Part shown: one piece after another, positions 386 to 56,433 of the stretch
Position numbering within the stretch: position 1 is the first letter of the stretch
Layout of the letters: every line of letters begins with the position of its first letter
Assembly: GCA_046075565.1 (NCBI GenBank)
Contig: JBJTQJ010000052.1
Location: 75,912 to 139,911, forward strand
From: Verrucomicrobiales bacterium
Lineage (GTDB): Bacteria; Verrucomicrobiota; Verrucomicrobiia; Verrucomicrobiales; SLCJ01
Direction of reading: 5' to 3'
Length of the DNA stretch: 64,000 nt
Notes under the pieces: model-generated
What the model saw: only the letters and a program-made list of their open reading frames with translations
Database searches by the model: none
What the model was told of the DNA's origin: nothing
Position numbers and translations under genes: made by a program

Positions 386-809
386 GGGAATCCAGCGCCT
401 CTTTTGCGAGAGTTTGGATACGCGTCACCACGGATGCGAGTCCGTTCAGACGCGTCGGGGTGATCTGACGTTCCAGTTTCAAGCGGGCAGGCCAATCGAG
501 ATTGATGGCAGCCAATTCCCTGGCGGAACAACCATCCGCGAGCCGGACGGTCACGCCGACGAGTCCGCGCACCATGACGGAATCGGCGAGGACGCGAAAA
601 TGAAGGCTGGTGATATCACCATCCACCGCGAGATGAACCCTCGACACGCAACCGTGAACGCGGTTTGTTTCGGTACCGAGTGCTTCGGGAAGTTCGGTCG
701 CTTTTTTCCCCCAATTCGCGAGCGCGCCCAATCGCTCCTGAGGATCCGGCAGTAGAAGCATGTCTTCCACCAACGTGTCCAAGCGGGCTTCGATTTCCAT
801 GCGGCTCAT
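375..809 (-). CDS. sufE: SufE family Fe-S cluster assembly sulfur acceptor
   Basis: NRVHGCVSRVHL, ADSVMVRGL and ITPTRLNGL motifs. Confidence 0.88.
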   Translation of the reverse strand: MSRMEIEARLDTLVEDMLLLPDPQERLGALANWGKKATELPEALGTETNRVHGCVSRVHLAVDGDITSLHFRVLADSVMVRGLVGVTVRLADGCSARELAAINLDWPARLKLERQITPTRLNGLASVVTRIQTLAKEALDSHVD

Positions 810-1348
810 GGTGCCAGCGCTTGTTCAATGGCCGCGATGACCTCCGGGCTCTCCGGTTTTTGTTTTGGCTCGAAACGGGCCAGTGGTTTCCCATCCTTCC
901 CGATGAGGAATTTGCCGAAGTTCCACTTCACGTCACCGGGGAAAGCGCCATCCTTGCCGGTGAGGGCAGTATAAAGCGGATGCTGTTCCGCGCCCTTCAC
1001 GTGGATTTTTTCCATGAGGGGAAAACTGACCTTGAAACGATTGCTGCAGAATTCCTGGATTTCCTCGGCGGTGCCGGGTTCTTGTCCTCCGAAGTCATTG
1101 CAGGGAAAAGCGATGACCGTGAAGCCCTTGGCGGAGAATCGCTGGTGAATTTTCTCGAGTTCCTCGTATTGCGGGGTCAGTCCGCATTTGGACGCGGTAT
1201 TCACCACCAGCACCACCTTACCGCGATGGGCTGCCAGGCTGGTGCTCTCTCCGGTGATGGTTTTGAAGGGAATTTCGGCAAGGTCACCGGCCAGAGCGCA
1301 AACGCCGGAACCGAGAATGGCGAGGGTGGAAAGGAAAATGCGGATCAT
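806..1348 (-). CDS. Glutathione peroxidase with signal peptide
   Basis: VNTASKCGLTPQY, FPCNDFGGQEPG and WNFGKFLIGKDG motifs; start moved to MIRIFL. Confidence 0.93.
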   Translation of the reverse strand: MIRIFLSTLAILGSGVCALAGDLAEIPFKTITGESTSLAAHRGKVVLVVNTASKCGLTPQYEELEKIHQRFSAKGFTVIAFPCNDFGGQEPGTAEEIQEFCSNRFKVSFPLMEKIHVKGAEQHPLYTALTGKDGAFPGDVKWNFGKFLIGKDGKPLARFEPKQKPESPEVIAAIEQALAP

Positions 1349-1444: not shown

Positions 1445-2254
1445 TCACGGAACATTTTCGGAACGATGCGGGTTCCAGAAACCATTCTCCTCATCGGGGC
1501 CGAACCAGCCGAGGCCGGCAGCATCCGCGTCCCCGCCATGGGGGTTCTCACCGACCGCCCGGGTATTTTTTGGTTCGGCGGTCACGCGTCCATCGCACCA
1601 GGCGACGAGGGCTTTTCCATTCGCGCGGAAATGCACGGTGGGTGAGGGGCGTTGGCCGCTCGGACCGGCGCCGAAATCCCAGAAGGGCGGTTCGCAATAA
1701 GGGTATTCCTGAATTCCACCTTCGCGCGCGTAGGCCGTGGTCGCGAACATGACGGTGTGTGCGGGATTGCCGACACGGCCCGGATGTTCGGGAATCCGCA
1801 GGCCGCTCGCGCGGTCGAATTTTCCTCCCGGCCGGCCGCCGATGTATTGCGCGTTGTATCCATATCCCCCGGTGCCGGTTTCAAAACTCTCCTTGCCTTC
1901 GACCATGGCCGTGAGCAAAGGACAGGGTGTAATCTGACGCGATTTTCCCAGATAGGGGGCGAGGAATCCATCTTCCGGAGCAAATGCCTGACCTCCTTTG
2001 CGCGCGCCGTGCCAGCGCTTGTTGTTTGTCCGGTCATCGGCCGGAGCGAAGGTGCCGTGATCCGCGACATACAGCAGATTGGCGGCGGCCAGTTGCCCGA
2101 GGTTCTGGCTACTGCGTGCGATGCGGGCGCCTGTGACGGCTTTCTGCAAGCTTCCAAAACCAACAACCGCCAGCACCGCGATCACGACGAGCACGATGAG
2201 CAGCTCGACGAGCGTGAAGCCGGGGCGTCGGAAGTTGGCAGTTGGAAAATTCAT
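1445..2254 (-). CDS. Prepilin-type N-terminal cleavage/methylation protein with C-terminal H-X9-DG motif (DUF1559-like)
   Basis: G|FTLVELLIVLVVIAVL prepilin motif; YGYN; HFRANGKALVAWCDG; TGATG overlap with the upstream gene. Confidence 0.88.
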   Translation of the reverse strand: MNFPTANFRRPGFTLVELLIVLVVIAVLAVVGFGSLQKAVTGARIARSSQNLGQLAAANLLYVADHGTFAPADDRTNNKRWHGARKGGQAFAPEDGFLAPYLGKSRQITPCPLLTAMVEGKESFETGTGGYGYNAQYIGGRPGGKFDRASGLRIPEHPGRVGNPAHTVMFATTAYAREGGIQEYPYCEPPFWDFGAGPSGQRPSPTVHFRANGKALVAWCDGRVTAEPKNTRAVGENPHGGDADAAGLGWFGPDEENGFWNPHRSENVP

Positions 2255-3528
2255 CAGGGCGTAGTGGGCCGGACGGCGAGTCGGAAATGGGCGCTGGGAG
2301 AGGAAGGTAAGGGCAAAGTGACGGTTTGGCGACGGATAACTCCGATGCTGGCGATGGGTGAGGCCGAAACGTCGCCCAGAGTGGGGGAAAAGGGCGCGAC
2401 GGGTTTGAATGCCCCGCCATCCGTGGAACGTGCGATGGTGTCCCAATCTTTGAGATTGAGGGAGCGTTGCACTTCCAGAACCAGTCCCCGGGCACGCGTG
2501 TCGCGGTTGAATTCCAGCACCACGGAGCCGTAGGTGATGTTGATGGACATCGCTGGTTCGTTTTCCCTTCGCGTCGGTTCGCGGCCGAGGGCAAACTCGA
2601 GGGCATTCGAACAACCATCATCATCCGCATCGACTAACCAGGCCGACGATTCGGACGGAATCTCTTTGATGCCGACCCATGTCGTGAAATCAACCGGTGT
2701 CGAGATCCCGCCGATGGCTTCGAGGTCGAAACCACCCGAGCCGGTGGTGACCGATGGGTCGTAGATTGGCGATCCTTCGCTATCGAAAAACTGCCCGGTG
2801 CCGGGAATATCGACGACCCGCACATGAGTGATGGCGTTGAGATTGACAGCCCCACTAACAACCACTGAATGCGACGTGAGTTGCGAAAGATCAAACGGTG
2901 TGCCCCAGGAAATTCCGTAACCATTCGCGTGTTTGCCCGCGAGGTTGAAGACATTGGTGGCATTAAAGACTCCATAAGCGGTAATAGACGATGTGCTCAA
3001 CGAACGCGACGGAAACCGCGCGAAGACGTTGCCATTGCTCGACACCTCAATGTAGGCGAGTTCGCCGAAAATCTGGTTGCCACTCGAGAATCCATTTTCA
3101 AAGACCGCGAGGTCGGCGCCGGGAAGATCGGCAATCGGACGCGCCAGGGTAATGGTGATGTGGCCGGGCAGGAAGCCGCTGGTGACCTGTGTGGCGGTCA
3201 AATCGCCGAGCGAAACGGTGTCGAGATAATGATCTCCGGTGACCGGGCCGAGGGCCCACTGGGGATCGTCATTCGTGTCGTCCCCCGGATTCGCGCTTTC
3301 GTAGCTCACGACTTGATTCGCCCACGTGAAGAATAATGGATTCACCCGATTCGCGGCACCCGGTTCTCCATCGAGTCCGGTAGCACCTTCTCCATCCGGA
3401 CCGATGAAGCCGGGAATTCCGGCGTCGGCTTTTGTAGGATCCGATCGTGGCCCGGAATACGGACCGGCGGCGGCCAATCCCGCAAGCACCATGACCGAGC
3501 ACGCAATGATATGAGAGGGTAATTTCAC
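2254..3528 (-). CDS. Secreted cell-surface protein, putative cobalamin-associated, with verrucomicrobial C-terminal domain
   Basis: Signal peptide; VSLGD...DLAVFENGF...ELAYIEVSSNG...NLAGKH...GTPFDL...GFDLEAIG; C-terminal DADDDGCSNALEFALG...SLNLKDW...FRLAV. Confidence 0.75.
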   Translation of the reverse strand: MKLPSHIIACSVMVLAGLAAAGPYSGPRSDPTKADAGIPGFIGPDGEGATGLDGEPGAANRVNPLFFTWANQVVSYESANPGDDTNDDPQWALGPVTGDHYLDTVSLGDLTATQVTSGFLPGHITITLARPIADLPGADLAVFENGFSSGNQIFGELAYIEVSSNGNVFARFPSRSLSTSSITAYGVFNATNVFNLAGKHANGYGISWGTPFDLSQLTSHSVVVSGAVNLNAITHVRVVDIPGTGQFFDSEGSPIYDPSVTTGSGGFDLEAIGGISTPVDFTTWVGIKEIPSESSAWLVDADDDGCSNALEFALGREPTRRENEPAMSINITYGSVVLEFNRDTRARGLVLEVQRSLNLKDWDTIARSTDGGAFKPVAPFSPTLGDVSASPIASIGVIRRQTVTLPLPSSPSAHFRLAVRPTTP

Positions 3529-4502
3529 GCGGAAATTCTCCGGCGGCGGATACCAAGCATGAAAACTCCGGCAAGGCCAAGAACGGCCGCGCCCGGTTCG
3601 GGAATCGGCAATGTCGAGAGAGGCGCATATCCATAGGAAACGGCATCACCGCTTCCAAAGCCCGCCCGATTCACCCAGCCGAGATACTCTGTTCCGCCAT
3701 TCGTGAAGGTGGCTAGACTCGCGTAGTTGGAGTTGTTGAAACCGGGCGCGACGAGGGTTCCTGTCTCACTGGTGCCGAGATCGAGCACGCGGATGCCATT
3801 GATTTGATATCCGCTCGCGTAGAGCCGGTTGGTTGTCGAATCCACCGCCAGGTAACCACTCACGCCAAGATTCGCTACAAAAGTGCCGTTCGCGAGGGTG
3901 AGCGGCGTTCCTGCGATGGCCGTGGTGATTTGCGCGGCGGTATAGCGGTAGATGTTATTGTCGTTGGCATCGAGCCCGGCATGGGCGAGATAGACATTTC
4001 CGACATCATCCATGGCGATGCCACCCGAGAAATCGGAGAACGCGGTAATCAGGGTTGTGATGGTGCCACCGGATGAAATGTGATAGAGAGCCGATGAACC
4101 GAATCCCTGCGAACCGACCATGAGCAAGGCGCCCGATCCGTAGTTGACGCCCGCATAAGGATTATTGGGCGGGGCTATCGCGGCGTTGAAAGTGGTGGCG
4201 GTATTCGTGCCGTCGTAACTTCGCGTGCCGGAGTTGGAATATCCGATGTGCGTGGAAGTGATGAAGCTTGAATCACCTGCTGGTGCGTTCGTGTAAGGAG
4301 TCGCCGTCGACGCTCCGAAAGTATCCTGCCGGATGAGGTTTCCGTTGTGGCCGTATACAAAACGACCGTCCGGCAGATGGCCAAGAGCGGTATTGGTGAA
4401 GTTTTGCGTATTCGGCAGGGGCAACACAGTCCATGACGCGCGGGCCGTGGAAACAAAACCGGCCGCGATGGCGGCCGCCAATACAAACAATGATTTTTTC
4501 AT
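3525..4502 (-). CDS. PEP-CTERM sorting domain-containing surface protein
   Basis: MKKSLFV signal peptide; C-terminal IPEP + hydrophobic helix + RRRR; AAAGGA SD-like sequence upstream of ATG 4502. Confidence 0.9.
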   Translation of the reverse strand: MKKSLFVLAAAIAAGFVSTARASWTVLPLPNTQNFTNTALGHLPDGRFVYGHNGNLIRQDTFGASTATPYTNAPAGDSSFITSTHIGYSNSGTRSYDGTNTATTFNAAIAPPNNPYAGVNYGSGALLMVGSQGFGSSALYHISSGGTITTLITAFSDFSGGIAMDDVGNVYLAHAGLDANDNNIYRYTAAQITTAIAGTPLTLANGTFVANLGVSGYLAVDSTTNRLYASGYQINGIRVLDLGTSETGTLVAPGFNNSNYASLATFTNGGTEYLGWVNRAGFGSGDAVSYGYAPLSTLPIPEPGAAVLGLAGVFMLGIRRRRISA

Positions 4503-4576
4503 GTGGTGTCCTTTGCAAAGACGGGGTGGATGAAAAGGACAATCCTTTTCCCCGAATGCGAAAGGACTACCCCCGC

Positions 4577-4700
4577 ACGGACGTTTTCGCGACGCCGTTG
4601 TCCATTTCAGGACGGTGCGGTTTTCTCCGCCGGTTCGAACCCGGACTTTGACCTTTGCGCGACAGTGAGGGACTTTCACCCTGCTTTCCTAGGCCGGCGG
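4577..4700 (-). ncRNA. Cobalamin riboswitch, short class II / AdoCbl-variant type
   Basis: Minus strand reads CCGCCGG-CCU-AGGAAAG-CAGGG-UGAAAGU-CCCU-CACUG-UCGCGCAA-AGGU-CAAAGUCCG...CCGGCGG (closing stem, T-loop, L5), then hairpin ACGGCGU-CGCGAAA-ACGUCCGU whose loop is complementary to L5 (UCGCG/CGCGA). Confidence 0.85.
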
Positions 4701-4890
4701 ATTGGTTGGATAATGGAAAGATCGAATCGAAACCGCAGGCGGCTTCGTTGGTGACAAGATGCTTTAGGATACACGGGTCGTCAAGTATCGGATTCCTTCA
4801 AATCTCCCGTCAAAGTCGGCGAATCCAAATATCCAACGAATCCGGCAGATCCCGGGGTGGCAAGCGCCCGGCCGCCGCGTATGGTGGGGC

Positions 4891-6947: not shown

Positions 6948-7939
6948 AGATTCGCCGACCATCGCCGGGTCCGGGCACACGGTGGACACGCCGCGCCACC
7001 CTCGGAGGACTCGTCTCGCTCTGTCTTCCTCGCTGGAGCCCGGCCGTGCCGGCCAAGGGTTTTGATCCGCGTGATGTTGAAGCCAGCCTGCGCCTGCAAA
7101 TTTACCTCGACCGCCAGGGCTTCGGTCCCGGTAAAGTGGACGGCAAGCCGGGTGAGTTCACCCGCAAGGCGGTCGATTGCTACAACACGACCATCGGTCT
7201 CGCCCCCGGCGACTACAGCGCCGTGCTCAAGGAGTCGGAAAACATGCCGATCTGGAAAAACCACCTCGTGAGCGAAACGGACTTCGCGTGGGTGGATGCC
7301 ACTTTGCCAACCGATCCACCGGAACAGGCAAAGCGGAAACTTCTCCCCTACCGCAGTCATCTCGAGTTTCTCGCCGAGCGATACCATACCGACGAACCAT
7401 GGTTGAAAAAGTCGAACCCGAAAATCGACTTTGCCAACCTCAAGAGCGGCGACACCGTGCGTGTGCCCAACGTCGTGCCTTTCGCGATCGAAAGTTTGCC
7501 ACGTCCTCACCAATGGGCCTCCACTCCCGCCTACGCGAAACGCACCGCGCTCGTCGATACCAATTACAAATTCGCCTGCATCTTCGAAGAGAACCGCATG
7601 ATCGCGGCTTTCCCCGTCACTCCCGGCGAGGAAAAATTTATCCACCGCGGCGATTGGAAAATTGTCGTCATGCAAGCATGGCCGCAATTCCGTTGGGATA
7701 AATCCATGCTCGAAGCCGGACTACGCGGCGAGGAATTCCACATGCTCCCGCCCGGCCCCAATAGTCCCGTCGGCGTGCTCTGGGCCGGACTCAACCGCTC
7801 CGGCATCGGACTCCACGGCACCGCCACGCCCGAAACCATCGGCCGCTCGCGCAGCGCCGGTTGCATCCGCCTCGCCAACTGGGATGCCGTGCGCCTTCCC
7901 AATTTCTTGCGCCCCGGTTGCCCAGTCGTGGTGCGATGA
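6944..7939 (+). CDS. L,D-transpeptidase (YkuD family) with peptidoglycan-binding domain
   Basis: LQIYLDRQGFGPGKVDG; PPGPNSPVG; GLHGT...SAGCIRL; twin-Arg-like leader. Confidence 0.92.
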   Translation: MKIRRPSPGPGTRWTRRATLGGLVSLCLPRWSPAVPAKGFDPRDVEASLRLQIYLDRQGFGPGKVDGKPGEFTRKAVDCYNTTIGLAPGDYSAVLKESENMPIWKNHLVSETDFAWVDATLPTDPPEQAKRKLLPYRSHLEFLAERYHTDEPWLKKSNPKIDFANLKSGDTVRVPNVVPFAIESLPRPHQWASTPAYAKRTALVDTNYKFACIFEENRMIAAFPVTPGEEKFIHRGDWKIVVMQAWPQFRWDKSMLEAGLRGEEFHMLPPGPNSPVGVLWAGLNRSGIGLHGTATPETIGRSRSAGCIRLANWDAVRLPNFLRPGCPVVVR

Positions 7940-8119
7940 CCCGCCCCCGGTTCGAACCCGCGATGAACCATCGGACTTGAACTCCGAAAAGAGAACCACA
8001 GACTTCGCTGATACTGGGAGGGATGGATGAGGTGCTTTTCTGCCGAATGGTTTCTTATTCTTTCGACGGGCATTTGTCAACTTGAGCCCCCTCCGCTCTC
8101 CGCGTATCATTGTGCTGCC

Positions 8120-8410
8120 ATGGATTCCCCCGCACCCGATCGCGCCGCCGCCGAACTCAAGGCGATGCAGGATTCCATCTACCGGGAGAAAATCCTCCGG
8201 GCACGCCGCCAGACACCGGAGGAGCGCTTGGCCGATGTCTTCGTGCTAACCAACTCAGCGTTCGCCCGCATGCATGCGGGAGCGATGTGGCAGGCGGGAA
8301 CAACGGACGAGCAGGAAGGATGGCGGATCGTGCGACAGAGGCTCGCCCGTTTGAGCAAAGTCCATGACGCCGGGCGCTTTGTCAGCCACCCCCCATCCCC
8401 CCGCGCATGA
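8120..8410 (+). CDS. Small helical protein, putative antitoxin/partner of the downstream nucleotidyltransferase
   Basis: 96 aa, REKILRARRQTPEERL; ATGA overlap with the next gene. Confidence 0.65.
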   Translation: MDSPAPDRAAAELKAMQDSIYREKILRARRQTPEERLADVFVLTNSAFARMHAGAMWQAGTTDEQEGWRIVRQRLARLSKVHDAGRFVSHPPSPRA

Positions 8411-8973
8411 CCATCGAGCAACTTGCATGTGCTGTTCTGGATGCCTGTGAGGCCGAGGGGGTCGATCACATGCTCACCGGCGCCTTCGCGCACGGGCTCT
8501 ATGGTATCCCACGTTCGACAAAGGATGTGGACGTCGTGCTCAGTATCACTGCCGACGACTCGATCACGAAAGTGGTCAAGCGGCTCGATGGCATCGTCCT
8601 ATTCGAACCCCAGGTCCAGTTTGACACCCTCATGTGGGGCAGGCGCCTTGTAGGAGAGTCCATTGGCACACCTCCCTTCCAAGTCGAACTTTTCGAGTTA
8701 TTCGACGATCCTTTTGTCCTTTCCCAGTTCAAGCGGAGGCGGCGAATGGTCTCCGCCCAGATCCAGCGCGAGACGTGGCTGCCCACGCCCGAGGACGTCA
8801 TCGTGCAAAAGCTCCGCTGGGGCCGGAACAAGGACCTCGATGACGCCCGCGACGTGCTCGCCGTGCAGGGACCGGAAACTCTCGATATAACCTACATCGA
8901 GCACTGGTGCAGCCAGCACGGCACCGTCGCCCGACTCCAGGAAGCTCTCGCCGGCATCCCGCCGCTCGATTGA
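8407..8973 (+). CDS. Pol-beta superfamily nucleotidyltransferase (AbiEii/DUF1814-like)
   Basis: TGAFAHGLYGIPRSTKDVD and PEDVIVQKL...RNKDLDD motifs. Confidence 0.8.
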   Translation: MTIEQLACAVLDACEAEGVDHMLTGAFAHGLYGIPRSTKDVDVVLSITADDSITKVVKRLDGIVLFEPQVQFDTLMWGRRLVGESIGTPPFQVELFELFDDPFVLSQFKRRRRMVSAQIQRETWLPTPEDVIVQKLRWGRNKDLDDARDVLAVQGPETLDITYIEHWCSQHGTVARLQEALAGIPPLD

Positions 8974-9177
8974 CTTTTCCATCGGGGCAGCGTGGGAAAT
9001 CCTCGCCGTTTTCGGTGGACATCTCACCCTATTCTTGGTAAATCGCACATGAGATGGTCTTACCCGAAGAACCGCTGTCTCCCGATGTCGGGCTGGCTCG
9101 TCCGTTCCCGATTCCGCAAGGACTGAAAGCCGGGCATCTCACCGGTCACCATTTTCGGCCATTCTCCGCGCCATTGC

Positions 9178-32800: not shown

Positions 32801-35293
32801 TCAGGGCGAGATGGAAGCGGCATTCACCGAGGAAGCATTGAGCGGGCGACCGGATGGATCGAGCACACGCACGGTGAGGAAAATCATCAGGGCCTTCCGT
32901 GAACTCTTGCGGGCATTTGATTTGAAAAGACGTCCCAGGATCGGAGCATCCCCGAGAATCGGGACCTTGTCGTTGATGGTCTCGGACTGTTCCCCGAGCA
33001 TACCACCGACAAAAATGGTCTGGCCATCGTAAACACTGGTGCTCGTCTTGAGGTGGCGGGTCTCAAAGATCGGCTGGATGATCCTGTTTTCAGTGATGAT
33101 AATGCTTGTCGGACGGCCGAGACCATCTATGGCGCCGGAGGTAATCGGGGTGCCGTAATTGACGAAGCCGATGAACTCGCGGTGGGTGATATCCATGTTC
33201 ACTTCCACGAGTTTTTTATCGGCGGAAACAACAGGATCCACTTCGAGAATGGAGCCGACAGGTTTGGAGTCGAAGGCGGCCGGGTTCGCCGGGGTAACAG
33301 GGAAAGTGGTCACCGTGGCCGGACTCAAGAGACCACCGCCGCCGCCACCACCAAGCGCATCGTTGCCGACGGAGTTGGGCAACTCCGGCGGATCAAACTC
33401 GGTCGGGTAGATGAAATCGCGAATCACCTCGATGCGGGCGGGCAGACCACTGCGCGTGGTCACCGTCGGCGCGTTGAGGAAGTCGGTGCCTTTGGCTTGG
33501 GAAATCGCGCGGATGACGACTTGGAAATTCGGCTCGGACAACGCACCGGCGATGGAAAGAATTCCTGGCGCGCGCAGCACACCTTGCGCGAGTTTGCTGG
33601 CGTCCTGCACATCGAGCAGGCGGTCGAGATTCCGTCCGGTGAAAGCGGTATCACCGCTCCGGTTGCCCGCGGTCACCGGGTTCGATCCGACTGGTCCTCC
33701 GCCGGGATAATTGAAAGGATACGTGTTGGGCGCGAGCATTCCCGGGCCGGTGCCCCCGGCAACCGCCACACCATTCGATCCGGTGAAGGCACCGAGCAAC
33801 CAGTCGAAACCGAGTTCGCGCGCGGTTAATTCATTCACCTCGAGCATCTTGGCCTCGATGGTCACCTGGGGATTGATGTTGGACCTCGCCGCTTCGATCA
33901 TGCCCTCCAGCATCTCGTGATTGGCCTGGGAGCTCCGCATGGTCACCGTGCTCGTGCGGGGGTCGAAATTCGCACTCGCCCCCTCCGGGAATGTCAAACC
34001 GGTCTGCTCCAAAAATGTTTTCGCGGAAAGCCTTTGCAGTGCCAAACCACCGCCGCCCGGATTTCCGAAGGGATCACCCGCATCGCCACCGGCTTGGGTT
34101 GGCACATTGGAAATGAAATCCGGGGGAACATCATAGGTCCGCGTGTAAAGCGAGGCATTCGCCGATGCCGGGGGCACGAGCACCACGGCAAATGGCTCGA
34201 CCACCACGGCGAGCCCGGCTTGTTCGGCCAGATAACGCAGCACCGCTTCCAATGGCACGTCGGTGAGGCGGAGATTGATCTCGCGATTGATCACCTGCTG
34301 GGCGAACGGCTCGTCCAAAGAACCGATGCGCAGAATCACGCTCACGCCGCGTGCTTCACCCTCTTTCGCACCACGATCCAACATGCGGGCTTTGGAGACG
34401 ACGGTCTGCAACGCATCGCGGATATCAACTCCTTCGAGCGCGATGTTGTCGATCTGAATCTCGCGCAGTTTCTTGCCGATGGCATCACGAGCCGCCACCT
34501 CGGTGACCTGCCCTTGGGCCTGCGCAACGGTGGCGCGCACGGCGGCGGCGTTTGCCTCGGGGTTTTCCGACGTCCATCCTTGGTCCACCTGCCGGAGCAT
34601 GCGGGCCCGGCTGTGGTTGTAGGCGGCACCGGCATACTCGATGATGGCGCCTTCGACTTTTTCCATGCCCTCGCGGGCCGCGACATTGTAACGATCAATC
34701 CGCAGAACTTCTTCGTAGGTGGCGCGGGCTTCATCAAAGCGTCCGAGATTGTAGTGCGATTCCGCGAGCGTGAGCAAACGCAGGACTTCCTTGCGGTTGG
34801 CCGCCAGTTCCGGAGAGTTCGCGGGAGGATAACGCACGGGATCCTGGATCTCGGCCAAAAGGCGTTTGGCAGGACGGTTGTCCGGATCCATATCAACGGC
34901 CAGAACCCGATCGAGCAACGTTTTGGCTTCGGGGTAGCTGCCCGCGCTCGCCAGACGACCGGCTTCCTCGGTGGCAATCTCCGAAAAAGTATCGCGGGCG
35001 GCCGCACGGGTGGCGAGAGTCATGGGCGACTGCGGCAAGGAAGCACGCGCGGCCGCGAGTTTGTCGAGAGCGATGGCGACTTCCCCCTTCGCGGCCAATT
35101 CTCGTGCCTCAATGGTGGCGGCATCGGCCGCCCGGGTCGCATTGGCGCGTTTCTCGGCCTCGATTTCCGCCATTCCCGCGATGGAATGCGGGCCGGAATC
35201 CGCGATCGGACCAGCCACGACGGCGCACCAAGAGGCGCCCAAGAAAAGGGCAACCAGGAGGTTTCGGGATCGGGTCGTGGGTCTGGGTTTCAT
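32801..35293 (-). CDS. Secretin with TPR region (Amuc_1098-like type IV pilus/T2SS outer-membrane protein)
   Basis: QVTIEAKMLEV...ELGFDW, APTVTTRSG, DKVPILGDAPILGRLFKS. Confidence 0.88.
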   Translation of the reverse strand: MKPRPTTRSRNLLVALFLGASWCAVVAGPIADSGPHSIAGMAEIEAEKRANATRAADAATIEARELAAKGEVAIALDKLAAARASLPQSPMTLATRAAARDTFSEIATEEAGRLASAGSYPEAKTLLDRVLAVDMDPDNRPAKRLLAEIQDPVRYPPANSPELAANRKEVLRLLTLAESHYNLGRFDEARATYEEVLRIDRYNVAAREGMEKVEGAIIEYAGAAYNHSRARMLRQVDQGWTSENPEANAAAVRATVAQAQGQVTEVAARDAIGKKLREIQIDNIALEGVDIRDALQTVVSKARMLDRGAKEGEARGVSVILRIGSLDEPFAQQVINREINLRLTDVPLEAVLRYLAEQAGLAVVVEPFAVVLVPPASANASLYTRTYDVPPDFISNVPTQAGGDAGDPFGNPGGGGLALQRLSAKTFLEQTGLTFPEGASANFDPRTSTVTMRSSQANHEMLEGMIEAARSNINPQVTIEAKMLEVNELTARELGFDWLLGAFTGSNGVAVAGGTGPGMLAPNTYPFNYPGGGPVGSNPVTAGNRSGDTAFTGRNLDRLLDVQDASKLAQGVLRAPGILSIAGALSEPNFQVVIRAISQAKGTDFLNAPTVTTRSGLPARIEVIRDFIYPTEFDPPELPNSVGNDALGGGGGGGLLSPATVTTFPVTPANPAAFDSKPVGSILEVDPVVSADKKLVEVNMDITHREFIGFVNYGTPITSGAIDGLGRPTSIIITENRIIQPIFETRHLKTSTSVYDGQTIFVGGMLGEQSETINDKVPILGDAPILGRLFKSNARKSSRKALMIFLTVRVLDPSGRPLNASSVNAASISP

Positions 35294-35367
35294 CCTCAAG
35301 CGATATTCGCAGTGATCGAACTCTGAACAAAGCCTTTTCTTTCCTCCAACGCAAGCCGCTCTTGCGC

Positions 35368-37269
35368 CTATTTTTCAGGTGATTTGGATTCCGGGATCCA
35401 ACGGTAAATGCGGTTGTCGTGCACCGGGCTTTCGAGCGCCCAGGCGGTGTAGGCCAGCTCGAAGCGCCCGCCATGCTCGACAAAATCGAGAACCTCGGGG
35501 TGGGTGGACCGGGCTTTCGACTCATGGCCGACATAGAGAAACAGCTTTTTCCCCTCCCCATCGGCCTTGGCACCGGCCTCCCGGACCTGTTCCAAGGAAT
35601 CCGCCCAGCGCACGAGCGGGTCGTAGGTCACGGCGTCGCTCCAGAGGTCCAGGGTCACCACTTCCTTGTCGAAATTCGGAAAATCCCCGCCCCGGGCCAA
35701 GCGGACCAGCTCGCGCCCATCGGATTTTCCATGTTTCCAGAAGACCAGAATCGCGGAGACCGACGAAATGGCGAAAACGCAAGCGACCGCCCCCGCGAGC
35801 CAGCGTCCGCGACCGCGTGCACCCCCAAGACCCAGCCCGGCCAACACAATCATGCCCGGGAGGGCGGGAAGGGCATACCACCAGAGCAGGACATTTGCCG
35901 ACAACACCGAGCGGAGGTAAAGCGGCACCAGCGAGAAAAAATGCAGCAGGGCCAACACCAGAACCACTTTGCCGACAGTGGATTTTTTCCACGCCACCCA
36001 GCACCCCCACCCCGCTAGCAGATAAAACGCGATAGCCCCGGCGGTCCGCAGCGGGGAATGGACCGCCCCGGGATTGACGGGATTTTCCCAATCGGCCAAT
36101 CCCCATCCACAGCCGTTGCCGAGGAAAAACAAGGTGTCCCGCCACCATCCGGGGGGAATCGTGCCGACCATGGCGGGGTTACTTTGGAGCTGCTCGCGCA
36201 GTTGAATCATGCCGGGAGTAAGCACCAGACCGGCCGCTAAAGCTGCGAGCAATCCGCCGCCGGCCCAGCGCGTCAGATGATGCACCGCCTCGCGGCGGCC
36301 ACCGATGATCCGCCATCCTGCCAGCATGAGAAAGATGCCCCCTTGGCCCAAAGCCACTGCGATCAAGGAGCCGGGATTGGCCCACATCGCGACCAACTGG
36401 CACATTCCATGCCCGACCCACGCGCTCCAGCGTCCGGACTGCAATGCGGCAAGCAGGAAAACATACCCGGCCATAATCGCCATGATCATGATGCTGTAGC
36501 CCCGCGCCTCCGTGCTGTAGCGCACATGCCATGGATGGATGGCGAGAAGAAGGGCCATGGCAAATCCGGCCGAAGGACTCCCCATGCGCGCCCCGACCAA
36601 ACCGGCGAGCAGAATCGTGGCCAGCCCAGCCAACAGAGGCGGCACCCGCGTCGGCCACTCTTTCACCATGCCATCCGGAGCCCCGGCGGCTTTTTTCCAC
36701 GTGTCGTGGCCCACACGAGCGAGGATACTGTAGAGAAAGCCATTGTTGCCGGTGGAATTGCGGAAGGCGGTCTCCGCCCAACGCGGTTGGCGGAATTTTT
36801 CACCCTTTTCCCCGCAGTTTTTCCATTCTCCGGCGATGATGCGCACGTAGTTGTGCGATTCGTCGTTGTAGAGCGAATGGCCCATGCGGGGCAAACGGAG
36901 TCCGAGACCTAACAACAACGTGAGCAAAATCGCCGGCCAAAACCAGCGCGGGTGCGCGGGCGGATGCTCCAACAACCCAGGCAATTCCGACGGGCCGATC
37001 CACCCCGGCTGATCGAGTTTGGAAAAAAGCCCGGCGCTCGCCGAGGCGAGAGCCGCCACCACCGCGACCGCCACCCCACTCCACCAGAGGCAGGTGGCCG
37101 CCATCGGCTCCACCCGTATTTTCCCCGCTCCTTCAACGGATGCCGCGGCCTCGGCCCAAGCCGTGCGGGCATCGCTGTTGGCAATCAAAATACCCGCCAC
37201 CAGCAAGGCCACTCCTCCCGCCACGATGGCCGCACGGTGGTTGCGGGCTCGGAAGTTCGTTGGGCCCAT
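35368..37269 (-). CDS. GT-C fold membrane glycosyltransferase (GT39/ArnT-like)
   Basis: LRLPRMGHSLYNDE, WHVRYSTEARGYS and many TM helices; start placed after the terminator. Confidence 0.8.
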   Translation of the reverse strand: MGPTNFRARNHRAAIVAGGVALLVAGILIANSDARTAWAEAAASVEGAGKIRVEPMAATCLWWSGVAVAVVAALASASAGLFSKLDQPGWIGPSELPGLLEHPPAHPRWFWPAILLTLLLGLGLRLPRMGHSLYNDESHNYVRIIAGEWKNCGEKGEKFRQPRWAETAFRNSTGNNGFLYSILARVGHDTWKKAAGAPDGMVKEWPTRVPPLLAGLATILLAGLVGARMGSPSAGFAMALLLAIHPWHVRYSTEARGYSIMIMAIMAGYVFLLAALQSGRWSAWVGHGMCQLVAMWANPGSLIAVALGQGGIFLMLAGWRIIGGRREAVHHLTRWAGGGLLAALAAGLVLTPGMIQLREQLQSNPAMVGTIPPGWWRDTLFFLGNGCGWGLADWENPVNPGAVHSPLRTAGAIAFYLLAGWGCWVAWKKSTVGKVVLVLALLHFFSLVPLYLRSVLSANVLLWWYALPALPGMIVLAGLGLGGARGRGRWLAGAVACVFAISSVSAILVFWKHGKSDGRELVRLARGGDFPNFDKEVVTLDLWSDAVTYDPLVRWADSLEQVREAGAKADGEGKKLFLYVGHESKARSTHPEVLDFVEHGGRFELAYTAWALESPVHDNRIYRWIPESKSPEK

Positions 37270-37290
37270 GGCGGGTGCTTTCGGAAAACC

Positions 37291-37326
37291 AAAAACGCCC
37301 GCCGCGAGGGGCGGCGGGCGTTTTTT
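37291..37326. terminator. Bidirectional intrinsic terminator
   Basis: AAAAACGCCCGCCGC-GAGG-GGCGGCGGGCGTTTTTT just after the stop of 37335-39668. Confidence 0.8.
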
Positions 37327-37334
37327 GAGCGGAA

Positions 37335-39668
37335 TCACTTCGTCTTGAAGTGAATCGAGGTGCGCCATTGGCTCCCCTCGGGGAAGCGGCGCAGGGTCAT
37401 CGAATCCATCGTCGAGACCGTGTCGATGACCTCGCGGATGGTGTTTTCTTCGGAAAGAAACTCCTCGCGGGAAGAATCATCGGGGAACACCGTGCTGGCG
37501 TTGTTCTTCGCCAGGTCGAGCCACTCGAGCGCCGTCTTGGTCAGCGGGTCGAAGCGCATTTTCAGGACCAGACCACGGGGAGCATTGGCGTCGGGTTTGG
37601 CGGCGGCCAGTTTGCCAGCCAGCATCTCCGAGAAGTTCTTCGACGTGCTGAGGAAGAAATACTTCTCGCTGATGGAAGCGGAGGGCAGGAAGTCGTCGTT
37701 GGTGAAGCCGCTGACCGGATACGAGAAGGTCTTCAAGCCGAGGCTTTCTTTCTCGCTGATCGACGGGTCGGGCAGATTGATCCTCGAATCTTCCGGCATG
37801 GGCAGGGCGGCGAGCATGCCTTTGATGGCGGGCTCCATTTCCTTCCAGCCTTCGGTGATGAGGGCGCGGTTCACAACCGGGCGCAAAAGGGCCATACGCG
37901 GGACGCGGCCTTTGGTGAGCGCTTCCGGCAATCCGGGGAATTTCGGAATGGGAGCACCCATATCCATCACGAACGCGCTCTCGGAATCCACCGCCCCGCC
38001 GATCTTGCCACGGGCCGCTTTCCAAAGGGCCGTCACATGTGGAAGCATCTTGTCGCGGAAGAGAGTGAACTGCTCGGCCATGCCCGCTTCCTTGCCGGGT
38101 TCGCTTTCGGCATAGCGATGACCGAGTTCGTAACCGATTTCGGCGAGATCCTCGAGCAGATCCACCACTTTGCTGGTGTAGTTTTTGTCAGCACGGGTGT
38201 GGATGGCCAACATGGTATCTTCGCTGTCGAGGGCATTCGCGAAAGCCAGAGGCACGCTCGCGTCGAGGTCGGGGCTGTCGGCACCGCCGAGGCCTTCGAA
38301 GCGGACACCATTTTCAAACCAGCCCGCGCCGCAGAAAGCGGTGTCGGTGCCACGGGCGAGTTCGGTGAGCGTCTTGCCGGCTTTTTCCACCAGGGCAATC
38401 ACATCGCGCAAGTCGCCCATGGATTTGATCTCGCCGAGCACACCCGTGGCCATATCGGAAAGCCAAGAGTAATCGGCCGAAGCGCGGAAACTCTTGTTCA
38501 CTTCCTCGGCAGCCATGAGCACGAGGAACGGATTTTTGCCTTTCGCTTCACCCAACATCGAAAACTCCGGGCGCGCGGCCATGGATTCGTCTGGCTTATC
38601 CGTGAATTTGAGGGCTTCCGGATTGGGTGCGAGGAACAGCACGAGCGATTCGCCGCGCAGGCCGAAGCCGAAGCTGACTTGCTTCTTGATCAAGGCCGCG
38701 TGCAGCTTCTCGATTTGCGCTGGTTCGAGGTCCTCGCTCATGCCCTCGCGCATGTCGTCGATACTGATCATCTCCGCCGCCTTGACGGTGAACGAGACGA
38801 ACTTTCCGCCGCCCATTTCTTTTTCTTCCTTCACGACAAAGGGCGGAATTCCTTCGGACATCTCGCTGTTCCACGAAGCCAGCATCTCCTGAACCTTGTC
38901 GGCCTTGCCTTTGGCTTCCACGGCGATATAAAGCATCGGGGGGTCCATCTTCTCGACGCTTTCAAGAATCACGTCGAAGTTTTTCTTCAGCACGTCGGTC
39001 ATCGGGTTCACGTATGCATCGCTGGTATCCTCGATGAGACCCTGTTCCTGGGCCATCTGGACCAACGCCGTGCGATAGGTGGTGGCGTTGACCAAGTTCA
39101 TCAGTTTGAGGAGTTGGGTAGTCTGGGTGCCGGTGCCGGGACCGGTGGCGACCGTCAGCTTGCCGCTGGTGAACATGTCGAAATATTCACCGGCTTCCGT
39201 GCCAACCCCGACCGGGCTGTCATCCGGGGCTACCGCCGGCCCGTCGGCAGGGGAAGGTTCGCCATCGGGTGTCGTGGGAGCGGCGGGAGCGGCCGCCGCG
39301 GGTGCGGGCAGATCTCCTTCGCCGATGCCCATTTCTTCTTTGGCTTTTTTCCACAACTCGGTCCCTTCCAGCTTTTTCTTCACCTGGCCGAGGTCGAACA
39401 TCACCAGCGTCTCGAAGTCCTTCGAGAGCCCGGCACCATGCCCAATCAACGGGGCGATTTCCGCAGCGCTGACCGAAGGTTTCGGAGCCTCCGGCGCTGG
39501 AGCGGGGGCCGGGGTTCCTGGTGTGGTAGCGGGGGCCGTGCTGACGGGTGCGGCAGCGGTTTCGTTGCCCGGAGGCGGAGTTGCGGCTGGTTCCTTTTTG
39601 CCGCATGATGGAATGACTGCCAGCGTAAAAGCCGCCAGCGCAAGTGGGATTAGTTTATTTCTTTTCAT
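37335..39668 (-). CDS. Large lipoprotein of unknown function
   Basis: Lipobox-like IPSC, Pro/Ala-rich linker, long ORF with typical coding bias. Confidence 0.75.
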   Translation of the reverse strand: MKRNKLIPLALAAFTLAVIPSCGKKEPAATPPPGNETAAAPVSTAPATTPGTPAPAPAPEAPKPSVSAAEIAPLIGHGAGLSKDFETLVMFDLGQVKKKLEGTELWKKAKEEMGIGEGDLPAPAAAAPAAPTTPDGEPSPADGPAVAPDDSPVGVGTEAGEYFDMFTSGKLTVATGPGTGTQTTQLLKLMNLVNATTYRTALVQMAQEQGLIEDTSDAYVNPMTDVLKKNFDVILESVEKMDPPMLYIAVEAKGKADKVQEMLASWNSEMSEGIPPFVVKEEKEMGGGKFVSFTVKAAEMISIDDMREGMSEDLEPAQIEKLHAALIKKQVSFGFGLRGESLVLFLAPNPEALKFTDKPDESMAARPEFSMLGEAKGKNPFLVLMAAEEVNKSFRASADYSWLSDMATGVLGEIKSMGDLRDVIALVEKAGKTLTELARGTDTAFCGAGWFENGVRFEGLGGADSPDLDASVPLAFANALDSEDTMLAIHTRADKNYTSKVVDLLEDLAEIGYELGHRYAESEPGKEAGMAEQFTLFRDKMLPHVTALWKAARGKIGGAVDSESAFVMDMGAPIPKFPGLPEALTKGRVPRMALLRPVVNRALITEGWKEMEPAIKGMLAALPMPEDSRINLPDPSISEKESLGLKTFSYPVSGFTNDDFLPSASISEKYFFLSTSKNFSEMLAGKLAAAKPDANAPRGLVLKMRFDPLTKTALEWLDLAKNNASTVFPDDSSREEFLSEENTIREVIDTVSTMDSMTLRRFPEGSQWRTSIHFKTK

Positions 39669-39731
39669 GGTCTGGGAGGAAATGCGTCTAAGCATGCCCG
39701 TCTAGCCCGTCATCGTCAAGCAGGGATCCCG

Positions 39732-53783: not shown

Positions 53784-53797
53784 GGCGTGGGCTTGGA

Positions 53798-56284: not shown

Positions 56285-56433
56285 TCGACTTGAACGGCTT
56301 GGTATTTCTCCCAAATTCGGCCCGAAGGCTCGTCTTATACGCCGCGGAACGCCCGCTCTTGCTCAAAAATCGGGGGAAATCGGGACAATCCCCGGACCGG
56401 AGCCCGGCGCCAACGGTTTCCGAAGACTTGTCG

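Follow-up and report, generated by a model that had tools for sequence, protein, structure and literature searches.

The window analysed here, by which we mean the whole stretch of 64,000 nucleotides, contains on its minus strand three overlapping genes preceded by a structured leader. The features of the locus, from upstream to downstream, are the following:

4784..4813, minus strand: promoter-like site TTGACG-18-GATACT, about 85 nt upstream of the aptamer (consensus scan, 9/12 matches)
4627..4700, minus strand: candidate cobalamin riboswitch aptamer of the AdoCbl-II (RF01689) type (Rfam covariance model, 35.0 bits)
4503..4626, minus strand: expression platform, with the Shine-Dalgarno sequence AAAGGA 6 nt before the ATG, paired with an upstream UCCUUU
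3525..4502, minus strand: gene A (P0002), 325 aa, signal peptide, six-bladed NHL/Pizza-like β-propeller and PEP-CTERM-type tail
2254..3528, minus strand: gene B (P0001), 424 aa, signal peptide, BtuH-like jellyroll, D-x-D-x-DG motif and Ig-like C-terminal domain
1445..2254, minus strand: gene C (P0003), 269 aa, prepilin leader and globular domain of about 230 residues, a divergent H-X9-DG/DUF1559 relative

The gene junctions given in the preliminary description were correct (GTGA at 3528-3525 and TGATG at 2256-2252). Gene A starts at ATG 4502 and not at GTG 4679 of the mechanically called ORF, as all 18 sequences of alignment A1 start there. A Pfam scan of 48 ORFs of the window revealed among them no TonB receptor, BtuF/BtuCD, ECF or cobalamin-synthesis gene; the same scan located a secretin within the window, and assembly genes for pili are missing from the operon.

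The promoter-like site is weak, since the consensus scan found one such site against 1.3 expected from shuffled sequence. The Rfam search at gathering thresholds returned no riboswitch match and the aptamer surfaced in E-value mode only, where it scored 35.0 bits (gathering score, 36.5) and covered positions 1-81 of the 81 of RF01689 at E 2.5e-6 (2.3e-6 in the whole-genome search). No other cobalamin-clan candidate was found in the genome. The aptamer lies in the 5' leader 125 nt upstream of gene A, and has the conserved GUGAAA hairpin and the closing P1 helix. The same aptamer was detected by Rfam upstream of the gene A homologues at loci L017, L018, L019, L021 and L022, and was recognised by eye at L020 and L023 as well, the L023 orthologue having been missed by Rfam because of an insertion of ~33 nt after the GGAAAG element. 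Pairing in the hairpin is preserved despite changes on both sides in three of its pairs. The sub-threshold call could be rescued because the element is conserved at related loci, and what stands of the earlier identification of a cobalamin riboswitch is a full-length AdoCbl-II aptamer conserved in orthologues, although its score here stays 1.5 bits below the Rfam gathering score. The minimum-energy fold of 4490-4705 (-75.6 kcal/mol, z -2.17) pairs AAAGGA with UCCUUU, and the sequence of the expression platform is kept in L020 and L023; judging from the folded model, the leader would act by translational control.

To our knowledge BtuB is the only well-described outer-membrane route for vitamin B12, a shared nutrient of keystone importance. 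The host genome, scored as 100% complete, encodes a five-domain MetH and both subunits of methylmalonyl-CoA mutase, and gave no match to CobS, CbiB/CobD or a BtuF-type (Peripla_BP_2) binding protein; from this gene content the host, a freshwater verrucomicrobium, is best explained as B12-dependent and B12-auxotrophic. A BtuB equivalog was not found in the genome, the best TonB-B12 score being 60 bits where the cut-off is 599.7, and because two Plug-domain genes are present a TonB-dependent route is conceivable here. DUF4465 had no match in the genome at E<=0.01. For the pilus machinery, three ATPases of the PilB/GspE kind and four of the PilT kind are encoded, as is a prepilin peptidase.

The predicted structure of gene A (pLDDT 86.1) resembles the six-bladed Pizza, NHL and SMP30 propellers. 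Its top Foldseek matches were Pizza6, SMP30, Drp35 and PknD, with BtuG absent among the matches listed, and its profile matches the NHL repeats of PknD. The protein ends in IPEPGAAVLGLAGVFMLGIRRRRISA, which comprises IPEP, a hydrophobic helix and RRRR; P301-E302-P303 is invariant in 18/18 sequences of alignment A1, and two exosortase genes are present in the genome. The PEP-CTERM HMM (PF07589) gave no match at E<=1 in P0002 and was present in two of 17 homologues, and the MYXO-CTERM model matched P0002 at E 0.087. The PEP-CTERM signal first attributed to gene A is upheld by the PEP motif, the hydrophobic helix and the basic tail. Genes A and B are both without a lipoprotein signal, in contrast to the Btu proteins, and neither matched any Pfam family above that family's own cut-off.

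For gene B, the predicted structure (pLDDT 89.7) comprises a jellyroll at about residues 60-278 and an Ig-like β-sandwich at 312-423. Its two top matches in VIA-align are both Bacteroides B12 binders, namely 7biz_B (BtuH2; Z 11.8, rmsd 3.1, 162 residues) and 8blw_B (BtuG1; Z 10.9), and the matches that follow are generic jellyrolls at Z<=9.5. The margin over these generic folds is modest (Z 11.8 vs 9.5). Searches of PDB sequences with phmmer and with profiles, at limits of E<=1 to 10, recovered neither 7BIZ nor 8BLW. In the alignment of the family, some acidic and some aromatic columns are invariant. The N-terminus is a plain hydrophobic signal, whose sole Cys, at position 10, is embedded in the hydrophobic core with no lipobox context, and no membrane anchor is seen in the model. 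What had been called a verrucomicrobial C-terminal domain matched no Pfam or NCBIfam model and is replaced by the Ig-like β-sandwich of the predicted structure. Among 30 family representatives, the gene B-type domain is fused to DUF4465 in seven, to PKD in nine and to β-propellers in six, and fusions to PKD domains and to propellers have been described for BtuH (PMC8941943; PMC13616437). At L017 a jellyroll, a propeller and a C-terminal domain occur together in a single ORF of 698 residues, in which the jellyroll is that of B (45% identity), the propeller of the A type (29% identity, E 2e-24) and the C-terminal domain that of B. None of the three genes matched PF14717 (DUF4465) at E<=1. On the strength of fold, fusions and genomic context, genes A and B are candidate corrinoid catchers and may be functional counterparts of the Bacteroides BtuG/BtuH/BtuJ.

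Gene C had been described as an H-X9-DG pilin with a type IV prepilin leader. The leader is secure, as it scores above the cut-offs of PF07963 (29.9 bits vs 21.2) and TIGR02532 (29.2 vs 16.3) and shows G-1, F+1 and E+5; F13, L15 and E17, the last of which is E+5, are invariant in 14/14 family members, and the N-terminus also matches the GspG, GspH, GspI and GspJ models. In established pilin biology the E+5 residue serves filament assembly. The family assignment holds in part: the motif spacing is H-X12-DG and P0003 matched neither TIGR04294 nor PF07596 at E<=1, while TIGR04294 is matched by 9/14 family members (best E 8.6e-6) and PF07596 by one (24.1 bits). Relatives ~62% identical to gene C are named H-X9-DG by one source, and PF07596 occurs in 10-31% of the members of its protein-language-model neighbours. 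With the H-X9-DG/DUF1559 proteins (TIGR04294, PF07596) of PVC bacteria gene C shares the prepilin leader and, behind it, a large C-terminal domain whose end reads ...W.DG.V, and it differs from them in its spacing, in missing both HMMs and in forming a single-copy subfamily. The 14-member alignment contains the invariant aromatics W81, Y131, Y133, F170, Y184, F209, W219 and W250, and at least 713 relatives were found at E<=1e-10. All 13 riboswitch-linked pilins of other genomes had gene C as their best match among the 26 prepilin-like ORFs here, over the full length and at E 1e-29 to 1e-84, the next paralogue lying at 1e-10 to 1e-15. By these comparisons gene C is a single-copy orthologous subfamily bound to one regulatory context and not a large paralogue expansion, and it is probably a dedicated, functionally required partner of the operon.

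The preliminary description had made its proposal depend on pilins of this kind being associated with B12 riboswitches elsewhere, and homologous pilins are indeed riboswitch-linked in many other genomes. A riboswitch above the Rfam cut-off, from one of three Rfam families, precedes gene C homologues at 8 of 20 further loci, seven more have a sub-threshold match in the right place, and none was detected at the other five (L091, L103, L105, L106 and L110). Gene A homologues have a cobalamin-clan match directly upstream at 7/11 loci (two above the Rfam cut-off) and at two more by eye, and in distant relatives class-I Cobalamin riboswitches fill the same operon slot (L016, 74.6 bits; L015, 35.6 bits). 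At L018 the riboswitch is present and gene A is reduced to a frameshifted stub; L024 holds a gene A homologue, but no riboswitch, B or C within its 2.4-kb contig. Upstream of gene B homologues, RF00174 was found above the Rfam cut-off on the same strand, at 34-78 bits, in half of the 20 loci scanned across the phylum, and three of the ten negatives (G047, G112 and G062) gave a match once longer upstream DNA was taken, that of G062 being below the Rfam cut-off. Above-threshold RF00174, RF01482 and RF01689 elements precede homologues in the same slot, with a maximum of 86.5 bits.

In all ten riboswitch-positive extended loci the pilin homologue closes the operon, and in seven of them a DUF4465 protein, which carries a PEP-CTERM tag or forms one protein with the jellyroll, stands ahead of jellyroll and pilin; none of the 39 ORFs scanned in these ten loci is a TonB receptor or an ABC transporter component. 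Among the 22 further genomes that have a gene B homologue, 14 also have the pilin, always just downstream and on the same strand, and in eight it is missing at E<=1e-15. The partners vary between loci (propeller, DUF4465, jellyroll, fusions) and the pilin remains 37-54% identical, being in some lineages the first gene after the riboswitch. Two families of the phylum gave no Plug-domain match (0/32 and 0/17 genomes), and the pilin is present in 25/32 and 7/17 of these genomes, often directly behind a riboswitch. Locus counts such as these overstate the support, because related genomes are not independent. We found no published description of a B12-riboswitch operon paired with a dedicated pilin, and the recurrence of riboswitch, binders and pilin across the phylum points to an undescribed B12 uptake route.

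The riboswitch-controlled Btu relay of Bacteroides thetaiotaomicron consists of BtuJ, BtuH, BtuG, BtuB and BtuFCD (PMC13616437; PMC8941943; PMC6143338). The operon resembles it in placing several predicted extracellular corrinoid binders under a cobalamin riboswitch, in combining a β-propeller partner with a jellyroll for which BtuH2 is the closest match among solved structures, in the natural jellyroll-propeller fusion of L017, which recalls BtuGH, and in the DUF4465 (BtuJ-type) proteins of sister operons. Unlike the Btu relay, it is without lipoprotein signals, anchoring being attributed to the PEP-CTERM tail of gene A; the propeller of gene A is six-bladed and NHL-like, that of BtuG seven-bladed; similarity of gene B to BtuH is not detectable in sequence with HMMER; btuB and btuFCD are absent from the operon and no BtuF-type protein was detected in the genome; and a pilin-like gene ends the operon. 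DUF4465 (PF14717) was reported to bind B12 in vitro in the seven proteins characterised, the family including D5EK51 of the verrucomicrobium Coraliomargarita akajimensis, and the neighbourhoods listed contain TonB, ABC and propeller domains (bioRxiv 10.1101/2025.08.21.671476). The words "pilin", "prepilin" and "PEP-CTERM" are absent from the main text of that preprint. In sister operons DUF4465 occupies the slot of gene A, whereas the genome studied here is without a DUF4465 match and genes A and B miss PF14717.

Competence pili take up DNA, and macromolecule uptake through pilus retraction serves as the analogy here. Gene C resembles the subunits of type IV competence pili and type II pseudopili in its G-1/F+1/E+5 leader, and the genome has the peptidase, ATPases and secretin; it departs from them in that the cargo would be a 1.3-kDa vitamin, in that no assembly genes are co-located, and in that its filament is putative. 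The job of the operon is very probably B12 acquisition. The first proposal, a B12 capture system with a pilin-like subunit of its own, is well supported on genomic grounds, because pilins are riboswitch-linked elsewhere and the folds and contexts of the partners are binder-like; its mechanistic part, in which the pilin itself would carry corrinoid by a pilus/secretin route, stays conjectural. At low intracellular cobalamin, the AdoCbl-II-type leader would free the ribosome-binding site and the three coupled genes would be translated. Anchored at the cell surface through PEP-CTERM/exosortase sorting, gene A would capture extracellular corrinoids together with gene B, a secreted or surface BtuH-like jellyroll, as their folds, fusions and context suggest. 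Gene C, cleaved by the prepilin peptidase, would enter a type IV filament or pseudopilus that might bring the vitamin or a loaded binder across the outer membrane and the periplasm in the manner of a competence pilus, and an inner-membrane carrier would finish import. We give a little less than an even chance to this reading as a whole, that is, to a B12-repressed corrinoid-capture operon with candidate binding and transport functions and the pilin as its dedicated envelope-crossing component. That gene C is an import filament rather than a periplasmic binder or an export pseudopilin is a tentative choice. A more specific version, in which cobalamin, or a BtuH/DUF4465-type binder loaded with it, attaches to an H-X9-DG-type pilin and is carried by retraction through a secretin into the periplasm independently of TonB, is possible and rather doubtful.

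The globular domain of gene C (~230 residues) is large for a pilin and has many invariant aromatics, and the B12 pocket of DUF4465 is described as aromatic-lined (bioRxiv 10.1101/2025.08.21.671476); gene C could instead be a periplasmic B12 binder replacing BtuF, which, cleaved or uncleaved, would stay in the inner membrane by its N-terminal helix and pass the vitamin to a carrier there, the outer membrane being crossed via one of the two TonB-dependent receptors or another pore. The two Plug-domain genes, the failure to find a BtuF-type Peripla_BP_2 protein in a 100% complete genome and an operon without assembly genes all agree with such a role. A mere anchor, however, has no need of E+5, which is invariant in 14/14 members, and riboswitch-pilin loci persist in families without any Plug domain, where something else must therefore cross the outer membrane; we consider a periplasmic binder unlikely. 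The fit of the N-terminus to the GspG, GspH, GspI and GspJ models, together with the GspE-like ATPases and the secretin, would also suit a dedicated minor type II secretion pseudopilin that recognises A, B or DUF4465 binders in the periplasm, drives them out through the secretin and makes no contact with B12. The pilin is always found together with exported binders, and gene B, whose signal peptide is of the plain kind and which lacks an anchor, must have some way of passing the outer membrane. Export is nonetheless improbable, as binders that change beside a constant pilin (37-54% identical) favour a constant small ligand over a varying cargo, PEP-CTERM proteins possess their own sorting system, and several lineages have the pilin first behind the riboswitch.

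An operon unrelated to B12 uptake, with a chance or decayed aptamer or with adhesins that are induced at low B12 and attach to B12 producers, would accommodate the sub-threshold Rfam score and the want of any Pfam match above cut-off in A and B, since β-propellers, jellyrolls and pilins are common adhesin parts. It is highly improbable in view of the riboswitches of up to 86.5 bits, from three Rfam families, that precede homologues of A, B and C, of the B12 binders that are the top structural matches of gene B, and of the partner DUF4465, which binds B12 in vitro (bioRxiv 10.1101/2025.08.21.671476).

The operon and its relatives in Verrucomicrobiota couple known kinds of B12 binders to a dedicated pilin, without a gene for a TonB-dependent transporter, and two families lacking such a transporter in the genomes searched still hold riboswitch-pilin loci. 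If a pilus did act as vitamin importer, the large DUF1559/H-X9-DG family would gain its first specific ligand and PVC bacteria a TonB-independent outer-membrane route for B12; the function of H-X9-DG/DUF1559 proteins, a question of PVC biology, becomes testable with one ligand and one phenotype. The six-bladed PEP-CTERM propeller joins the candidate corrinoid binders, and the large unnamed jellyroll family of gene B, with 10,239 cluster representatives at E<=0.001, is now placed beside BtuH.

Behind an RNA element of the AdoCbl-II type, three genes are arranged in tandem on the minus strand, in an operon that is very probably a B12-repressed unit for corrinoid capture; the products of genes A and B would be candidate extracellular corrinoid binders, and gene C is likely to be a dedicated partner. 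The features are:

4627-4700, minus strand: AdoCbl-II-type aptamer
3525-4502, minus strand: gene A, propeller protein with a PEP-CTERM tail (P0002); ATG start backed by 18 of 18 aligned family members
2254-3528, minus strand: gene B, jellyroll protein (P0001); GTG start
1445-2254, minus strand: gene C, prepilin (P0003); ATG start

Both overlaps named in the preliminary description were recovered, the GTG start of gene B sharing GTGA (3528-3525) with the TGA of gene A, and the ATG of gene C sharing TGATG (2256-2252) with the TGA of gene B. The window had also been described as devoid of B12 uptake and synthesis genes, and in agreement with this none of its 48 other ORFs was assigned by Pfam to a TonB-dependent receptor, to BtuF/BtuCD, to ECF or to cobalamin synthesis. 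A GTG at 4679, the start of gene A in the mechanical ORF call, would read through the RNA element and was rejected, the family alignment starting at the ATG. The operon is bordered upstream by an aspartate kinase gene on the opposite strand and downstream by genes for glutathione peroxidase and SufE. Only 42 nt (1403-1444) separate the stop of gene C from the glutathione peroxidase ATG (1402, same strand), with a 6-bp hairpin without a T-run on the minus strand, and transcription from the operon into the glutathione peroxidase gene is possible; the genes downstream of the operon vary between related loci.

Rfam at gathering thresholds gave no match in the whole window. In E-value mode the best match was AdoCbl-II (RF01689) at 4627-4700 on the minus strand, with 35.0 bits (E 2.5e-6) and all 81 of the 81 model positions spanned; the gathering score of this model is 36.5 bits, and the element is visible in E-value mode only. 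Over the whole genome no other RF01689 match was of note, a second one reaching 17.1 bits (E 0.86), and RF00174, the class-I model, scored 16 bits at most and elsewhere, while the single match of RF01482, of the same clan, coincided with the 4627-4700 element (23.8 bits). The proposal of a cobalamin riboswitch ahead of the three genes therefore stands on a full-length match kept in related loci, although the score falls below gathering. The pairing of the central GUGAAA hairpin is kept through two-sided changes at three positions. In the minimum-energy fold P1 is formed and the AAAGGA ribosome-binding site is paired with an upstream UCCUUU, and from this modelled pairing we infer translational control.

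Eleven loci encoding a gene A homologue were compared (L026 was left out, being on the same contig as L018), and seven carry a cobalamin-clan match directly upstream on the same strand: RF01689 with 34.8 bits in L018, L019 and L021, 32.1 in L017 and 29.8 in L022, and RF00174 with 74.6 bits in L016, an Opitutales contig, and 35.6 bits in L015, a Verrucomicrobiaceae contig. In L023 an aptamer was seen by eye (800-930, plus strand) with an insertion of ~33 nt after the GGAAAG element and no Rfam match at E<=1, and Rfam may be less sensitive to this verrucomicrobial AdoCbl-II-type variant. The contig of L020 begins within the 3' half of an aptamer, again by eye, that of L025 begins within the gene A homologue, and no riboswitch was seen in L024, a marine contig. 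The L018 locus looks decayed (63-615): its riboswitch is intact, gene A is reduced to the first 114 residues in two frames, and neither B nor C occurs within 6 kb downstream.

The gene A product has a signal peptide, and its model (pLDDT 86.1) is a six-bladed beta-propeller whose nearest structures are Pizza6, SMP30, Drp35 and the PknD NHL propellers; against Pfam and NCBIfam it gave a weak SGL match only (E 0.081). The C-terminus runs from IPEP through a hydrophobic helix to RRRR, the PEP triplet being invariant in the family; PF07589 is matched by 2 of 17 homologues and the genome has two exosortase genes. The family is small, with 17 other proteins at E<=0.001, and since none of three same-family species genomes yielded a homologue, orthologues were drawn from metagenome contigs.

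The gene B product likewise has a signal peptide, and matched nothing in Pfam or NCBIfam. Its model (pLDDT 89.7) consists of a jellyroll (~60-278) and an Ig-like sandwich (312-423); Foldseek with the whole two-domain model returned poor global matches (TM ~0.25), and for this reason the jellyroll was compared by VIA-align with ~48,000 representative solved chains. B12 binders from Bacteroides take the first two places: 7biz_B (BtuH2) with Z 11.8 (rmsd 3.1 A over 162 residues) and 8blw_B (BtuG1, a BtuH-propeller fusion) with Z 10.9 over 171 residues. They are followed at Z<=9.5 by generic jellyrolls, including the AlyQ CBM32 that is named as nearest neighbour of BtuH (PMC8941943). No BtuH, BtuG1 or BtuJ entry turned up when PDB sequences were searched with HMMER, whether the query was P0001, profile A2 or either of two PKD/propeller-fused relatives; the tie therefore rests on structure and context, and we call the domain BtuH-like rather than a member of the BtuH family. 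The gene B family comprises 10,239 cluster representatives at E<=0.001 (1,022 at 1e-30), and among 30 representatives scanned the domain is fused to PKD in nine, to DUF4465 in seven, to beta-propeller repeats in six and to four DUF4430 domains in one. For BtuH alleles, too, the reported architectures are fusions with PKD domains and with propellers (PMC8941943; PMC13616437).

In L017, the riboswitch and a gene A homologue are followed by one 698-residue ORF (6981-9077, plus strand) in which the jellyroll of gene B, at 45% identity, is combined with an A-type propeller (E 2e-24, 29% identity across 316 columns) and with the C-terminal domain of gene B. As this ORF unites both types, genes A and B belong together, and the natural jellyroll-propeller fusion parallels Bacteroides BtuGH. 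Two members of the gene B family are noted for their architecture. In P0259 (2697 aa) a gene B-type jellyroll occurs together with six PKD domains, DUF7507 repeats and four DUF4430 domains; as DUF4430 is transcobalamin-like, the protein may be a multi-site corrinoid binder. The predicted protein P0179 (658 aa) carries a gene B jellyroll (3-290) and a prepilin N-methyl motif (389-413), and is either a real fusion or an artefactual B-C read-through caused by a frameshift or by gene calling.

Gene C encodes a canonical prepilin leader and a globular domain of ~230 residues with the conserved motifs NxxRW, CP, FExGGYGYN, EY, PxxHFRxxGxAxVxWxDGxV and GWFGPxxN; E+5 is invariant in the family. The label of H-X9-DG pilin holds in part: the leader is present and 9 of 14 family members match TIGR04294, but the spacing from H to DG is 12 rather than 9. 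P0003 itself matched neither TIGR04294 nor PF07596. Given those nine relatives, and others at ~62% identity that bear the H-X9-DG name in one source, gene C would thus be a divergent member of the class. Records with 60-65% identity to gene C include Luteolibacter, Akkermansiaceae and Chthoniobacter.

Homologues of gene B were found in 23 of 201 genomes of the phylum. Twenty of the 23 loci outside the operon's own were scanned with Rfam (L048-L050 were left out), and in ten RF00174 lies upstream on the strand of the gene (34-78 bits). These ten loci were extended and their 39 ORFs scanned. These include neither a TonB receptor nor a binding protein nor an ABC component; the last gene is a prepilin-motif ORF in nine, and in the tenth, L054, BLAST identified a P0003 homologue (41% identity, E 9e-43). 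DUF4465 is encoded in seven of the ten, four of these loci having it on the jellyroll protein and three on a separate PEP-CTERM protein, and the gene A propeller occupies the slot that this domain holds in related operons. B12 binding by DUF4465 has been shown by experiment, in a preprint whose main text makes no mention of pilins (bioRxiv 10.1101/2025.08.21.671476). One related operon has, after the pilin, a gene of the tetrapyrrole (corrin/porphyrin) methylase family (L058:6547-7263, minus strand).

A motif scan of the genome gave 26 prepilin-like ORFs, and P0003 is the best match of all 13 riboswitch-linked pilins from other loci, over the full length (E 1e-29 to 1e-84), with the next paralogue far weaker (1e-10 to 1e-15) and matched mostly in the N-terminal region. 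These pilins form a single orthologous line, as opposed to chance picks out of an expanded set of paralogues. Two false positives of the motif scan for pilins, L055_4333 (a glycosyltransferase) and L058_5917 (on the opposite strand), did not match P0003 and are not counted in the 13. A search starting from gene C, which avoids the bias of starting from gene B, found homologues in 53 of 201 genomes. Among 22 other genomes with a gene B homologue the pilin occurs in 14, always just downstream on the same strand, and is lacking in eight. At 20 further pilin sites, for which up to 5 kb of upstream DNA was taken, a riboswitch scored above gathering at eight (six RF00174, one RF01482, one RF01689), and a sub-threshold match on the right strand was present at seven of the remaining 12, one of them, in L095, heading the operon ~3.3 kb upstream and the other six immediately ahead of the pilin; five sites had none (L091, L103, L105, L106, L110). 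The pilin is the first gene after the riboswitch in several lineages of this set. The preliminary description would have been refuted had homologous pilins elsewhere shown no association with B12 riboswitches; the ten gene B loci and eight of the 20 further sites show such an association.

The genome (3.9 Mb, 129 contigs, scored 100% complete) encodes a five-domain MetH and both methylmalonyl-CoA mutase subunits. CobS, CobD/CbiB, a Peripla_BP_2/BtuF-type protein and DUF4465 were not found in a genome search, FecCD matches were marginal (33 bits), and the two Plug-domain genes, one within a 196-residue open frame, scored at best 60 bits with TIGR01779 against a cut-off of 599.7. On this gene content, the cell is predicted to need B12 and to lack the usual enzymatic means of completing or remodelling it; no canonical BtuBFCD set was found. 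Two short MetE-like (Meth_synt_2) ORFs of ~340-370 aa occur beside the full MetH (G000:C95:13908-14906 and G000:C129:11991-12893). The genome also encodes three PilB/GspE-like and four PilT-like ATPases and a prepilin peptidase.

Three roles for gene C were weighed. It could be an inner-membrane-anchored periplasmic binder in place of BtuF, which we hold to be unlikely, or, less probably still, a secretion adaptor for the binders. Our tentative preference is for an import filament, since the E+5 residue does not vary, the genome encodes retraction ATPases and a secretin, the pilin remains the same whichever binder accompanies it, and clades without a TonB-dependent transporter retain the riboswitch-pilin pair. 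In the phylum sample, 134 of 201 genomes gave a Plug-domain match; in two families no match was found (0/32 and 0/17 genomes), with the pilin in 25/32 and 7/17, respectively. A Plug match is missing from 34 of 53 pilin-bearing genomes vs. 33 of 148 without the pilin, counts that are dominated by two clades and not independent.

The riboswitch-pilin-binder pattern is present in Verrucomicrobiota; the literature, supplements aside, yielded no published link of a pilin or DUF1559 to cobalamin. Among the matches listed, four of the five DNA runs with the sequence are freshwater metagenomes of one study and the fifth is sludge (0.05 share), and no RNA run with the sequence was among them. Elsewhere in the window, ~28 kb from the operon, the minus strand encodes a secretin with a TPR region (32801-35299, 832 aa), with two large ORFs of 666 and 786 aa, both without Pfam match, on its upstream side, the whole region spanning 32801-39695. 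A PSCyt1/PSCyt2/PSD1 (DUF1549/DUF1553) protein is encoded beside a DUF1501 protein at 52299-56314 on the same strand, a gene pair typical of PVC bacteria.
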